From NCBI RefSeq assembly GCF_000027125.1, contig NC_017626.1: a DNA stretch of 64,000 bases; one strand, 5' to 3'. The notes beneath the pieces were generated by a model, which was given only the letters and a program-made list of their open reading frames with translations, searched no databases and was not told where the DNA came from. The DNA comes from Escherichia coli 042. GTDB lineage: Bacteria; Pseudomonadota; Gammaproteobacteria; Enterobacterales; Enterobacteriaceae. The position numbers and the translations under genes were made by a program. Position 1 is the stretch's first letter; each line of letters opens with the position of its first letter. Positions 59,208 to 64,000 of the stretch are shown in pieces.

Positions 59208-59772
59208 TGCCTTAAATGTTAACCACGGTCGAAATCTGACCGCTGGCTTGACTGCATGACCACAGCCACTGTGGATTGCCGCAACCGACCGCAAGCCACG
59301 AATAAGAACGACGGCGAATTTCGAATCGTTACCTGATGCACTGGCTTCCCAGCGTTTGACCGTAGCGTTAAGTAAATCAACAAAAGCGATGTTCACCGCT
59401 TATCGTCAAGTCGTGCCATTTGTCAGCCAGGATCGGGTCTTTACCCCGGATATTGCAGCATCGCAAAAATTCTTAGAGGGATATGCTATAAATCAAAAAT
59501 AAAATCTTTGTTGATTGTTTATCATAATATCCACAGATATGATAAATGATATCAATTTAATAATTTTCACTTAATGTGATTCCGGATAATTCGAAAGGCG
59601 CTGTGCTTTTCGGATTATTATTATCTGATTAAGATATTTGTCACGCTAGGCTTACTGGGTTATAAATGTCAATCATGATTCTTATAAATTATTTATTGCT
59701 GCTTTGGTTACCATTACTTCGTAATAAGTAATGTATTTTTGATGGTTTAAACTATTTTTAAGGGACGGCATT

Positions 59773-60678
59773 ATGCGAGGGAAAATACCTAAAACGGAAC
59801 TGCTGGTGACTTTTGAGGTCGTCGCACGTCATGAAAGTTATACCAGAGCGGCAGAGGAGTTAGCGTTAACCCAAAGTGCAGTATTCAGACAAGTGAGTGC
59901 GCTGGAGGAATTTTTACATACTCCGTTATTTTCACACTCTAAAAAATGTATTTTTCTTAATGATGCAGGGAAGTATTACCTGGGGATAGTAAAAGAAACA
60001 TTAAATAAGCTGGAACGCGATACCAATACCATTATGACCTGGCAACCTACAGTTAAGGTTATTGAACTTGCCGTGAATCCTACGTTTAGTACCCACTGGT
60101 TAATCCCAAATTTACATGAATTCACAAAGTTACATCCCGATATTATTGTTAATATTCACTCTTTAGCTAATAACGGCGATTTTCTTAATCGGGAGTACGA
60201 TGCTGTCATTATGCGCGAAAATTTTTGCGCGCCCTGGGCGGAAGTAGAATATCTCTTTGATGAGGAGATTTTGCCGGTATGCAGCGGCAGTTTGCTTGCA
60301 ATGTCCGATCAAAAACTGTCAGTGGCAGAACTGCTTACTGAGTTACCACTTCTGCATCAAAGCACCCGTATTACTGGCTGGGAAGAGTGGTTTGCTTTAT
60401 CTGGCGTTAGCAGTCCGCTGGTCAATAACGGACCACGTTTCGATTTGCTTTCAATGCTGATTGCCGCCGTGCGCTCTAATCTCGGCGTGGCGCTGTTACC
60501 ACGGTTCGCTATTCAACATGATTTGGATAGTGGCGATATGGTGATTCCCTGTGATGTGCCTATTCGTACCGGTAATCGTTTTATTATGACGTGGCAGGAA
60601 GAGAAGTCTGACTCGCCGCACTTGCAGCAATTTCGTGAATGGTTGCTGGCGAAATCGGTCGTACCGCAGGAGATGTAA
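59773..60678 (+). CDS. LysR-family transcriptional regulator, 301 aa (not present at this locus in K-12)
   Basis: N-terminal HTH signature ...YTRAAEELALTQSAVFRQVSALEE...; C-terminal LLPRF co-inducer domain; low-GC coding sequence preceded by about 370 bp of A/T-rich DNA. Confidence 0.85.
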   Translation: MRGKIPKTELLVTFEVVARHESYTRAAEELALTQSAVFRQVSALEEFLHTPLFSHSKKCIFLNDAGKYYLGIVKETLNKLERDTNTIMTWQPTVKVIELAVNPTFSTHWLIPNLHEFTKLHPDIIVNIHSLANNGDFLNREYDAVIMRENFCAPWAEVEYLFDEEILPVCSGSLLAMSDQKLSVAELLTELPLLHQSTRITGWEEWFALSGVSSPLVNNGPRFDLLSMLIAAVRSNLGVALLPRFAIQHDLDSGDMVIPCDVPIRTGNRFIMTWQEEKSDSPHLQQFREWLLAKSVVPQEM

Positions 60679-60679
60679 A

Positions 60680-60710
60680 ACCTGCGCCTGGCGGGATGCC
60701 AGGCGCAGTT
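60680..60710. terminator. Bidirectional terminator between the convergent LysR gene and the adenosyltransferase gene
   Basis: CCTGCGCCTGGC-ggga-GCCAGGCGCAGG perfect inverted repeat in the 33-bp gap between the two stop codons. Confidence 0.7.
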
Positions 60711-60711
60711 A

Positions 60712-61314: not shown

Positions 61315-61323
61315 TCATTTTCC

Positions 61324-62976
61324 TTAATGTCCCGCAGGGCAACTGGCGCAGCGGTGTTGCTGCTCAAACTGACTAAAGAAATTATTGCCTTTATCATCTA
61401 CCAGGATGAATGCGGGCAGATTTTCCACTTCCATCATCCACACCGCTTCCATACCCAGCTCCGGGTATTCCAGGCAACGCAGACTTTTGACATATTCTTG
61501 TGCCAGTAACGCAGCTGCACCGCCAATACTTCCCAGATTGAAGCCGCCATGTTTGTGACAGGCATCGGTGACCTGCTGGCTGCGGTTACCTTTCGATAAC
61601 ATCACCAGACTGCCGCCAGCAGCCTGGAAGGTATCGACATAACCGTCCATTCGACCGCCCGTGGTTGGACCCAGTGAACCGCAGGCCATGTTCTCCGGTG
61701 TTTTCGCCGGGCCAGCGTAATAGACAATATGATGCTTCAGGTAATCCGGCATCGGTTCGCCGCTATCCAGCCGCGCTTTTATTTTGGCGTGGGCGATATC
61801 GCGCGCCACTACGATGGGACCACTTAACGACACGCGGGTGCCTACCGGTAATCTGGCGAGATCCTGCATCACGTCACGCAACGGACGGTTTAGATCCAGC
61901 TGTACATGTTGCGCGTGATTTTCTTCCCGCAGTGAGGCTGGAATATATTGCCCCGGATTGTGTTCGAGTTTTTCCAGCCAGATACCGTGCTTGTTAATTT
62001 TTGCTTTGATATTGCGATCGGCAGAACAGGAGAGCGCCATAGCTATCGGGCAAGAGCCACCGTGACGCGGCATACGAATGACGCGAATATCATGAGCGAA
62101 ATATTTACCCCCAAATTGCGCACCAATACCAAATTGCTGACTGGCCTCGAGCAACACTTTTTCCAGCTCAATATCACGGAATGTTTGTCCCTGCTCGTTT
62201 CCGCTGGTGGGCAAATTATCGTAATATTTCGTAGAAGCCAGCTTGGCAACTTTTAAGGTTTGATCGGCTGAAAGCCCTCCGACGACAAAGGCGATGTGGT
62301 AAGGCGGGCAGGCAGCGGTGCCCAGCGATTTCATTTTTTCGATTAAAAATGCGGTCAGTTTTTCTGGTTGCAATAGGGATTTGGTTTCCTGATAAAGCGC
62401 GGCTTTATTGGCGGAGCCGCCCCCTTTATTAACACAGAGAAAATGGTACTCATTACCAGCGACAGCGCTGATATCAATCTGCGCCGGGAGATTGGTTTGC
62501 GTATTGACTTCGGTATACATATCCAGTGGCGCATTTTGTGAAAAGCGCAGATTATTTTCCTGAAAAGTGGTGTAAATGCCTTTGCTTAAGGCTTCGGCGT
62601 CGTTGCCTCCGGTCCATATCTGTTGCCCTTTACTGGCAATAATAGTTGCGGTGCCGGTATCCTGACAGTTGGGTAATACCCCTTTTGCTGAGACTTCAGC
62701 ATTACGTAATAACTGCAACGCAACGTATTTATCATTACTACTGGCCTGCGGATCGTTAAGAATGCTGGCGACCTGTTGCAAATGAGCGGAACGTAAGAAA
62801 AAAGAGGCTTCATAAAATGCCTGCCGGGCAAGCAGCGTTAATGCTTCAGGAGCGATTTTTATCACTTCTTCGCCGTCTAATTCCGTTACTGTAATATGTT
62901 GATCGCTAATTAATGTATATTCTGTACCGTCTTTATTTTGTAGAAACGGTTCTTGCCAGATAAATGGTTTGGACAT
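61324..62976 (-). CDS. Class I (4Fe-4S) fumarate hydratase-family hydro-lyase paralog, 550 aa; candidate mesaconase
   Basis: Collinear with FumA/FumB along its length (LPxCQDTGTA, [40 protein letters not shown]) but a divergent paralog with a different C-terminus (…RCASCPAGH). Confidence 0.85.
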
Positions 62977-63083
62977 ATTTCACTTTTCACCTTAAACGTT
63001 AGTGTTACTTAATTGCCGTCTAACTTCATGATCCGGCTTATAAAAATGCGTAGTCATTGGCTTCTGATTGCTTAAGATCCCCC

Positions 63084-64000
63084 TCAGGGCAGAGCAACGT
63101 TCGATTCATTGGGTTTTAATGCTTTACCCCGACAGCCCTCGCCGAAATGTTCGCCTTCCCACCGACTCACCATCGCAGCGCCCATTGCGTTGCTCATGAC
63201 GTTTGTCGCGGAACGCCCCATATCAAGGAACGGATCAACGCCCATCAGCAAGATCAGCCCCGCTTCCGGAATATTGAACTGGTTGAGCGTGGCGGCGATA
63301 ACCACCATTGAGGCGCGTGGTACGCCAGCCATTCCTTTCGAGGTCAACATCAGGATCAACAGCATGGTGATTTGCTCACCGATGGATAAATGGATATTGC
63401 AGGCCTGGGCGATGAAAACTGTGGCGAAGGAGCAGTAGGCCATTGATCCAACGAGATTAAATGAGTAGCCAATGGGTAAGACAAAGCTGGCAATTTTGGG
63501 GGAAACGCCAAATTGCTCCAGTTTTTCAAGCGTTCCCGGAAAAGCCGCTTCAGAACTGGATGTGGTAAATGCCAGCAGGGCGGGTTCTGAAAGGGCGCGG
63601 GTCAGGCGTCTGATGCAGGGGCCGACATAAACGATGGCCAGACCGATAAGCAGCACCCAAAGTAACAACATGGTGAAATAAAATTCACCCATAAAGATCC
63701 CGGCGCTCACCATAACTGCCAGTCCTCGTTCAGCAATCAATGCTGAAATAGCGGCGAATACGGTCAGGGGAGCGAAGAGCATGACGTAGCCAGTGAGCTT
63801 TAACATGGCATGTGCCAGCGAATCTAAGGCGTGAACGATGGCGCTGCCTTTCTCACCAATCGCCGTCAGACTACAGCCGAGGAAAATTGAGAACACCACG
63901 ATTTGCAAAATTTCATTGTGCGCCATGGCATCGACAATGCTGGTGGGGAAAGCATGCGAAATAAATACTTTTAGCGTAAAGGGTTCTGACGCGACCACTC
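63084..64000 (-). CDS. Dicarboxylate/amino acid:cation symporter (DAACS, GltP/DctA-like), C-terminal about 305 aa; N-terminus beyond window end
   Basis: Polytopic hydrophobic sequence with ...FIAQACN... and ...SKGMAGVP... reentrant-loop-like segments; ORF runs off the window edge. Confidence 0.7.
   Translation of the reverse strand, partial: VVASEPFTLKVFISHAFPTSIVDAMAHNEILQIVVFSIFLGCSLTAIGEKGSAIVHALDSLAHAMLKLTGYVMLFAPLTVFAAISALIAERGLAVMVSAGIFMGEFYFTMLLLWVLLIGLAIVYVGPCIRRLTRALSEPALLAFTTSSSEAAFPGTLEKLEQFGVSPKIASFVLPIGYSFNLVGSMAYCSFATVFIAQACNIHLSIGEQITMLLILMLTSKGMAGVPRASMVVIAATLNQFNIPEAGLILLMGVDPFLDMGRSATNVMSNAMGAAMVSRWEGEHFGEGCRGKALKPNESNVALP

Follow-up and report, generated by a model that had tools for sequence, protein, structure and literature searches.

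Positions 59211-64000 of the window, by which we mean the whole stretch of 64,000 nucleotides that was analysed, very probably belong to a ~14-kb chromosomal cassette for the B12-dependent methylaspartate pathway of glutamate catabolism, of which they form the third at the regulator end. This reading is based on the identity, the order and the integrity of the genes, and on the (near-)identity of their products to characterised FumD and CmlAB. The cassette is already known: its gene content and location, as well as FumD acting as a mesaconase, were published in 2015 (Kronen & Berg, PLoS One, PMC4682846), and our follow-up is mainly a confirmation; new since then are the deposited CmlAB structures for the citramalate-cleaving step.

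The post-sucD site and its left junction

The ungapped alignment with K-12 ends at window position 59210, corresponding to K-12 position 765152 and lying two bases past sdhX, which is, exact to the base, the start of the accessory region proposed in the initial annotation. The final element that the window has in common with K-12 ahead of the island is the small RNA sdhX, located in the 3' UTR of sucD (59108-59208, plus strand), which showed one mismatch over 101 aligned positions to the annotated K-12 sdhX (b4764) and ends in a terminator-like hairpin predicted from the sequence at 59183-59200. K-12 carries mngR-mngA-mngB at the site following sucABCD, as the initial annotation had stated, and the four genes that had been considered absent from this K-12 locus indeed revealed no K-12 homology past 59210. 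The island takes the place of mngR-mngAB rather than sitting beside these genes, and tblastn gave no significant match to mngR, mngA or mngB remnants at its junctions. Of the previous description as an accessory island, the absence from the K-12 locus was thus borne out, with the refinement that the island is exchanged with the mng genes and lacks mobility genes.

The left junction (59211-59772) displays a normal GC content at 59211-59400 and is then A/T-rich upstream of the LysR gene, with about 28-38% GC in this stretch and 28% at 59450-59749 compared with ~52% in the flanks, in agreement with the A/T-rich spacer noticed before; it probably holds the promoter of the LysR gene. A region of equally low GC content (28-38%) is also located upstream of glmS. 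Parts of the junction are in common with E. whittamii, and no sharing was seen with Citrobacter, Salmonella or Klebsiella. Two ORFs of 63 and 48 aa in 59211-59500 gave no meaningful PADLOC or PHROG match and are unlike the pocR-like and uroporphyrinogen methyltransferase genes which fill this gap in other genera. Rfam, run in E-value mode over window positions 58900-64000 and the whole island of E. coli strain N3, returned no match, sdhX included, and for this reason no cobalamin riboswitch is assigned to either.

No integrase, transposase or IS element is annotated in the clean copies of N3, O157:H7 and the GenBank contig L006 (see below), and flanking direct or inverted repeats at the island boundaries did not exceed chance. 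Because mobility genes are lacking and the same post-sucD position is used in other genera, the island is a variable, replaceable chromosomal cassette, an alternative to mngR-mngAB, and not a classical mobile island. A recent separate acquisition was also considered and left no signal, the identity per kb to N3 and O157:H7 being alike inside and outside the island (98-99.8%).

Regulator, adenosyltransferase, fumarase and transporter

The LysR regulator, the BtuR-like adenosyltransferase, the class I fumarase and the DAACS transporter were all found where the initial annotation had placed them, with profile matches far beyond chance; the four genes contain no internal stops, the ORF of the transporter running off the window end. 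The LysR-type transcriptional regulator (LTTR; 59773-60678, plus strand, 301 aa) gave 47 NCBIfam LTTR matches, with an E-value of 4.5e-65 for GcvA-like LTTRs, and the identical protein of L006 carries the Pfam domains HTH_1 (PF00126) and LysR_substrate (PF03466). Its top NCBIfam model is the GcvA subfamily NF008352, reached with 219.7 bits and therefore below the cut-off of 288, a score that points to a GcvA-like protein which is yet not GcvA. Orthologs with 79-92% identity adjoin cobA-fumD in ~30 species of nine genera, and the protein is presumed to be the pathway-specific regulator. Its gene is oriented convergently with the catabolic operon rather than divergently, an unusual arrangement for a regulator of the LTTR family and the genes it controls, and no operator was identified. 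The stop codons of the LysR gene and of cobA flank a GC-rich hairpin (60682-60708) whose 11-bp stem contains 9 G-C pairs. Its inverted repeat also occurs in strain N3, and the hairpin is a candidate bidirectional terminator at which the operon would end.

The adjoining cobA/cobO gene (60712-61314, minus strand) encodes, according to its profile matches, an ATP:co(I)rrinoid adenosyltransferase of 200 aa, scoring 246 bits against TIGR00708 (cut-off 168) and 295 bits against NF004637 (cut-off 185), and its translation contains the P-loop GNGKGKST. With 67.3% identity to K-12 BtuR, it is a distinct paralog and a second copy besides the core btuR. Only 9 bp separate it from fumD. E. coli is not known to synthesise B12 de novo, and the pathway would consequently depend on external corrinoid.

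FumD (61324-62976, minus strand, 550 aa), a class I (Fe-S) fumarate hydratase, matched the equivalog NF011921 over its full length with 1282 bits (E=0, cut-off 1060) and remained below the FumA/FumB cut-offs (NF011919, 922 bits, cut-off 1105; NF011920, 920 bits, cut-off 1094). The protein agrees with the FumD of an O157:H7 strain in 541 of 550 residues (98.4%) and is 67.8% identical to K-12 FumA. The identical L006 protein combines the Pfam domains Fumerase and Fumerase_C in one chain, and among solved structures 5l2r, a class I fumarate hydratase from Leishmania, comes nearest (E=1.9e-210). Cysteines 104, 223 and 317 align with C105, C224 and C318 of FumA, the equivalents of which we take to be the Fe-S cluster ligands. 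The initial annotation had mentioned that a cluster with a mesaconase-type fumarase was reported for O157:H7; this is the cluster of PMC4682846, whose Fig 5 labels the four genes seen here as GltP, FumD, CobA and LTTR, and the published primers for cloning fumD (ecatcc700728_0849) match without a mismatch at 62955-62976 and 61324-61341, the two ends of the ORF. For the O157:H7 enzyme, kcat/Km was reported as 2x10^6 for mesaconate and 7.5x10^5 for fumarate (PMC4682846). By its likeness to that enzyme, FumD would be a mesaconase that turns mesaconate into (S)-citramalate, the preference being that of the published O157:H7 biochemistry.

The window contains the 304 C-terminal residues of the dicarboxylate/amino acid:cation symporter (DAACS; 63084-64000, minus strand), whose full length is 426 residues; the other 122, at the N-terminus, are located past the window end. 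The part in the window showed DctA/GltP-like matches (E=1e-63 to 1e-73), and the domain SDF (PF00375) on the L006 transporter places it in the DAACS/SDF superfamily. The full-length ortholog of N3 reached neither of the equivalog/subfamily cut-offs, with 312 bits for DctA (cut-off 513) and 302 bits for GltP (cut-off 638). As both models score equally well and both below cut-off, the import of glutamate is an assumption.

The remaining operon and the proposed pathway

L006 is 100% identical to window positions 51324-64000 (12,677 nt). Past position 64000, it continues with a DUF4387 gene, an AtuA-family gene, the gene for methylaspartate ammonia-lyase (Mal; TIGR01502, 544 bits), glmE, glmL and glmS, all of them intact, on the minus strand and upstream of the transporter. 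The operon therefore reads glmS-glmL-glmE-mal-cmlA-cmlB-transporter-fumD-cobA on the minus strand, and the annotated genomes of E. coli N3 and O157:H7 have the same gene order. Glutamate mutase, its chaperone and methylaspartate ammonia-lyase had been predicted upstream of the transporter just past the window end; they are present there, and the reference to the published cluster and the prediction beyond the window were accurate, only the AtuA/DUF4387 pair in between, which lies next to the transporter and outside the window, had not been foreseen.

Keyword searches of the literature for the function of DUF1446/DUF4387 gave nothing, and it was the sequence search of the PDB that gave the answer: the pair matched the chains deposited as "Citramalate lyase subunit A/B" (9erq/9evf) with E-values of 4.6e-292 and 5.2e-57, the AtuA-family protein being identical to subunit A in 420 of 456 residues (92.1%) from end to end and the DUF4387 protein also matching its deposited chain end to end. 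We read the pair as the putative citramalate lyase CmlAB, the activity being taken from the name of the PDB deposit and its use in one preprint. CmlAB would fill the step that was open in 2015, giving a route from glutamate to pyruvate and acetate. Between cmlB and transporter-fumD-cobA there are a hairpin and a gap of 160 bp. Two hypothetical proteins of 314 and 140 aa, encoded at the island's far end, belong to no Pfam, NCBIfam, PADLOC or PHROG family and could be further uncharacterised components.

In the proposed pathway, the DAACS transporter would bring in the substrate, presumably glutamate, which the glutamate mutase GlmS/GlmE, with GlmL maintaining its activity, would rearrange to 3-methylaspartate. 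Methylaspartate ammonia-lyase would convert this to mesaconate, FumD would hydrate mesaconate to (S)-citramalate, and cleavage by CmlAB would end the route at pyruvate and acetate. CobA would adenosylate salvaged corrinoid and in this way supply the adenosylcobalamin for glutamate mutase, while the convergent LysR-type protein, set off from cobA by the strong hairpin, would regulate the pathway. In O157:H7 ATCC 700728, expression of the cluster, methylaspartase activity and glutamate-dependent anaerobic growth were all not detectable (Kronen & Berg, PMC4682846), and the EHEC transcriptome literature yielded no expression data for the cluster. Judging from its genes, the pathway may run in E. 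coli in vivo. The GcvA-like LysR regulator and the A/T-rich, possibly H-NS-silenced promoters lead us to the tentative and rather doubtful suggestion that the operon is switched on only upon a gut signal, for example an intermediate together with corrinoid. On this suggestion, the ~21% of E. coli strains with the cassette would gain a niche for anaerobic growth on glutamate and forgo mngR-mngAB, the mannosylglycerate genes otherwise present at the site.

Distribution, alternative readings and related clusters

Among the 5,426 complete E. coli genomes, the window part of the island was found in 1,121 and the rest of it in 1,120, leaving ~79% of the genomes without the island. The order LysR-cobA-fumD-transporter-cmlBA-mal-glmE is kept in ~30 species, and further genera of enterobacteria likewise have the island after sucCD. 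Between distant E. coli lineages, its proteins are 98-99.7% identical, which indicates purifying selection; insertions and frameshifts occur in a few strains only.

Against this background, it seems unlikely to us that E. coli has inherited the cassette as a mere relic that is silent or in decay, never usefully expressed and deprived of the B12-synthesis-linked genes of other genera. Such a relic would be in line with the lack of inducible expression or activity in O157:H7 (PMC4682846), with the E. coli version having no glsA, pocR-like and uroporphyrinogen methyltransferase genes as in Citrobacter, Salmonella and Klebsiella, with the A/T-rich DNA upstream of the LysR gene and glmS, presumably of the H-NS-silenced kind, and with the many genomes that do without the island; the nine operon genes and the regulator are, however, all intact in the window and L006, the high identity between distant lineages speaks for purifying selection, and damage is confined to few strains. 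Still somewhat less probable is a use of the cassette for imported C5-dicarboxylates or methylaspartate (mesaconate, citramalate and 3-methylaspartate) instead of glutamate, with the transporter as a dicarboxylate importer and FumD plus CmlAB as the core. The mutase, the chaperone, the dedicated adenosyltransferase and the ammonia-lyase, all conserved and intact, would be useless for dicarboxylates alone, and the glutaminase in Citrobacter-type versions suggests that the starting compound is glutamine or glutamate, although the transporter scores slightly higher with DctA than with GltP (both under cut-off), the hairpin and gap after cmlB hint at a separate transporter-fumD-cobA sub-operon, O157:H7 showed no glutamate-dependent growth (PMC4682846) and, according to the same paper, Burkholderia uses mesaconate via a class I fumarase.

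The location of the fumD region directly after sdhCDAB-sucABCD and the real fumarase activity of FumD (PMC4682846) might suggest a fourth fumarase of the TCA cycle with functionally unrelated neighbours. This is effectively refuted by linkage and by the published kinetics, since kcat/Km favours mesaconate 2- to 3-fold (PMC4682846) and fumD lies next to cobA within the methylaspartate operon in every genome examined; FumD also has its own NCBIfam equivalog, separate from FumA and FumB. An ordinary conserved locus of K-12-like genomes, finally, is refuted by the mng genes at the K-12 site, by the end of homology at 59210 and by the restriction of the segment to about one fifth of the complete genomes.

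The glutamate fermentation cluster described for O157:H7 and other Enterobacteriaceae (Kronen & Berg, PMC4682846), comprising LTTR, CobA, FumD, a GltP-type transporter, DUF1446 (AtuA), Mal, GlmE, GlmL (MutL) and GlmS, has the same gene content and order as the island and occupies the same chromosomal site between sucD and cydA. With 98-99.7% identity between the proteins, there are allelic differences only, such as 9 of 550 residues in FumD. The window comes from a lineage other than O157:H7; for its core genes, the identity to complete E. coli genomes of RefSeq does not exceed 98.3%, and its sequence is found in GenBank assemblies only, such as GCA_036599265.1. The CmlAB of 9erq/9evf is an enzyme of Raoultella planticola from the Berg laboratory, to which the E. 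coli proteins are likened by sequence identity only.

The clostridial cluster of C. tetanomorphum and C. tetani (glmS-mutL-glmE-mal-mesAB-citDEF) shares the chemistry from glutamate to pyruvate and acetate, and its mutase, chaperone and ammonia-lyase are homologous to those of the island. In comparison, the mesaconase of clostridia, a homolog of class I fumarases, consists of two subunits (PMC4682846) and that of the island of a single chain of 550 aa, citramalate is cleaved in clostridia by the citrate-lyase-type complex CitDEF (PMC4682846) and in the island by the unrelated AtuA/DUF4387 type, and the regulator is GntR-type in the former and LysR-type in the latter. Much closer in arrangement, the island of Citrobacter, Salmonella arizonae and Klebsiella displays the same position after sucCD-sdhX and the same order of LysR-cobA-fumD...transporter-cmlBA-mal-glmE, with 79-94% protein identity, but carries three extra genes which the window lacks: that for glutaminase A lies between fumD and the transporter, while those for a PocR-like AraC regulator and a uroporphyrinogen-III methyltransferase are found in the interval from sdhX to the LysR gene.

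Genes downstream of sucD and the left boundary of the island

An ungapped alignment with E. coli K-12 MG1655 spans sucCD (sucD at 58238-59107 in the ORF listing) and the annotated sdhX sRNA in the 3' UTR of sucD (59108-59208, one mismatch in 101 against K-12) and ends at window position 59210, the very base from which the initial annotation had an accessory island begin. Past this point K-12 carries mngR-mngA-mngB, which follow sucABCD there as had been stated, and the island sits in the sucD-cydA interval instead of mngR-mngAB, with no remnant of mngR, mngA or mngB at the island. 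The island boundary lies two bases beyond the sdhX terminator.

After a short stretch of normal GC content behind sucD, an A/T-rich spacer (59450-59749, 28% GC) leads to the four expected genes, which were borne out by the ORF listing, base composition and NCBIfam, all showing overwhelming NCBIfam scores and translations free of internal stops. They encode a LysR-type regulator of 301 aa (59773-60678, plus strand) and, all on the minus strand, a cob(I)yrinic acid a,c-diamide adenosyltransferase of 200 aa (cobA, 60712-61314), a class I fumarate hydratase of 550 aa (FumD, 61324-62976), and a dicarboxylate/amino acid:cation symporter, of which the window holds the 304 C-terminal residues (from 63084 to its end). 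The stop codons of cobA and of the LysR gene, which is convergent with it, flank an 11-bp GC-rich hairpin (60682-60708). Rfam revealed no riboswitch and no other RNA family in the window segment or the island; the sdhX region 59108-59208 also remained without a match despite its alignment to K-12 sdhX.

The stretch between sdhX and the A/T-rich region upstream of the LysR gene (59211-59400) has about 51% GC and no detectable homolog; its 63-aa minus-strand ORF, called as a gene in one assembly, matches no family, and in Escherichia whittamii the flanks of this stretch are common to the window while the middle differs. Further upstream, the sucB-sucC intergenic region (56798-57071) displays REP/BIME-type palindromic repeats as in K-12; about 195 bp of this intergenic region are missing from the relatives N3 and O157:H7. 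ORFs of 69 and 89 aa overlapping these repeats were rejected as genes, being artefacts of the repeats.

The remaining cluster and its predicted pathway

In the annotated E. coli relatives N3 and O157:H7 380-94, the minus-strand operon extends beyond the transporter with genes for a DUF4387 protein, an AtuA-family protein, methylaspartate ammonia-lyase, methylaspartate mutase subunit E, glmL, and glmS, in this order, followed by two hypothetical genes and cydA. The window's own lineage was probed via contigs encoding exactly its FumD protein. Contig JAWCXC010000009.1 (L006, of GCA_036599265.1) matches window 51324-64000 at 100% identity across 12,677 bases and carries all genes from DUF4387 to glmS intact beyond position 64000; the mutase, chaperone and methylaspartate ammonia-lyase predicted past the window end are hence present in sequence-identical DNA. 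At the far island end, some 7-9 kb beyond the window and, on the operon strand, upstream of glmS, L006 also encodes hypothetical proteins of 314 aa (L006:227-1171) and 140 aa (L006:1252-1674), whose genes have 37-38% GC, are kept in N3 and O157:H7, and are absent from K-12; neither protein matched Pfam, NCBIfam, PADLOC or PHROG.

As of 2015, what becomes of (S)-citramalate was called "still unclear", and the gene following mal was known only to encode a DUF1446 protein (PMC4682846). A PDB sequence search matched the AtuA-family (E-value 4.6e-292) and DUF4387 (5.2e-57) proteins to two chains of 9erq and 9evf, deposited as "Citramalate lyase, subunit A (cmlA)" and "subunit B (cmlB)", with 420 of 456 residues identical for subunit A. 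Given this identification, the cassette is predicted to encode the complete route from glutamate to pyruvate and acetate.

We propose that glmS-glmL-glmE-mal-cmlA-cmlB-transporter-fumD-cobA would form one minus-strand operon terminating at the 60682-60708 hairpin. CobA would provide adenosylcobalamin for the mutase, FumD would convert mesaconate and water into (S)-citramalate, and the transporter would presumably take in the substrate; as the transporter fits the DctA and GltP models equally well and falls short of both cut-offs, glutamate as its substrate is an assumption. A perfect 14-bp hairpin in the 160-bp cmlB-transporter gap, some 440 bases beyond the window end as judged from the equivalent position in L001 (L001:19311-19342), suggests that transporter-fumD-cobA may be transcribed separately or with attenuation. 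The LysR protein resembles GcvA, with a score under the NCBIfam GcvA cut-off. A/T-rich DNA lies upstream of both the LysR gene and glmS, which would fit a conceivable H-NS silencing of putative promoters and would also fit the published report that no condition was found under which the cluster genes are expressed in O157:H7 (PMC4682846).

Occurrence in E. coli and other genera

By megablast, the full 59100-64000 segment was detected in 1,121 of 5,426 complete E. coli genomes, and the out-of-window part of the island in 1,120 genomes. mngR-mngAB was present in 3,864 genomes versus the 1,121 with the island, and about 420 appear to have neither cassette in the sucD-cydA interval; these counts fit an alternative occupancy of this interval. 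The island showed no integrase, tRNA or boundary repeats, and clean copies no IS element.

The core genes of window 36000-56000 and of the tail reach no more than 98.3% identity with any of the 5,426 RefSeq complete E. coli genomes; the GenBank-only assemblies GCA_036599265.1, LR134238.1 and LR134246.1 match the window at 99.98-100%, indicating that the source lineage is unrepresented in the RefSeq complete set. Window 45000-46000, the ybgQ/fimbrial gene region, is 88% identical to N3 versus 97-99.8% elsewhere, and the usher gene is annotated as frameshifted in N3.

A scan of species-representative genomes unveiled LysR orthologs with 79-92% identity in Citrobacter, Klebsiella, Raoultella, Enterobacter, Buttiauxella, Lelliottia, Pluralibacter, Salmonella enterica subsp. 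arizonae and diarizonae, and other Escherichia species, every one adjoining cobA-fumD...cmlBA-mal-glmE. Wherever the contig extends far enough, the LysR-cobA-fumD island directly follows sucCD, and this position, common to many genera, argues for an old location. In Escherichia whittamii (L010) and Escherichia sp. E1V33 (L011), LysR-fumD-cmlBA-mal-glmE-glmL-glmS follow sucD without cobA and transporter. Altogether, the observation behind the initial annotation is confirmed and its interpretation as a methylaspartate-route island supported, refined in three respects: cmlAB had not been predicted, the island replaces mngR-mngAB, and its position is conserved and non-mobile.

Relation to the published cluster

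The island has already been published (Kronen & Berg, PLoS One 2015, PMC4682846), with the cluster described from Enterobacteriaceae including E. coli O157:H7. Its extra class I fumarase, named FumD, was shown to be a promiscuous mesaconase/fumarase with kcat/Km values of 2x10^6 M-1 s-1 for mesaconate and 7.5x10^5 for fumarate (PMC4682846). The published fumD cloning primers fit the window with zero mismatches (62955-62976, minus strand, start; 61324-61341, plus strand, stop), and 541 of the 550 FumD residues agree with the protein of an O157:H7 strain, in line with the O157:H7-type cluster with a mesaconase-type class I fumarase named in the initial annotation; the LysR, CobA and transporter proteins reveal 98.3-99.7% identity to their O157:H7 counterparts. 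FumD is a true paralog with 67.8% identity to K-12 FumA and keeps the cysteines aligning with FumA C105, C224 and C318. The adenosyltransferase shares 67.3% identity with K-12 BtuR.

Compared with the window, the Citrobacter-type version has three extra genes (Citrobacter sp. FP75, L019:7088-8523 and L019:12301-13302; same gaps in contigs L012-L041). Two of them, for a PocR-like AraC regulator and a uroporphyrinogen-III C-methyltransferase, lie between sdhX and the LysR gene, and the third, for glutaminase A, separates fumD from the transporter, in agreement with GlsA and SumT in Fig 5 of Kronen & Berg (PMC4682846). The window's version is a reduced form of the island. GltP, FumD, CobA and LTTR, named in the legend of the same figure, are exactly the window's four genes; the system is not new, and its enzymes have been characterised.
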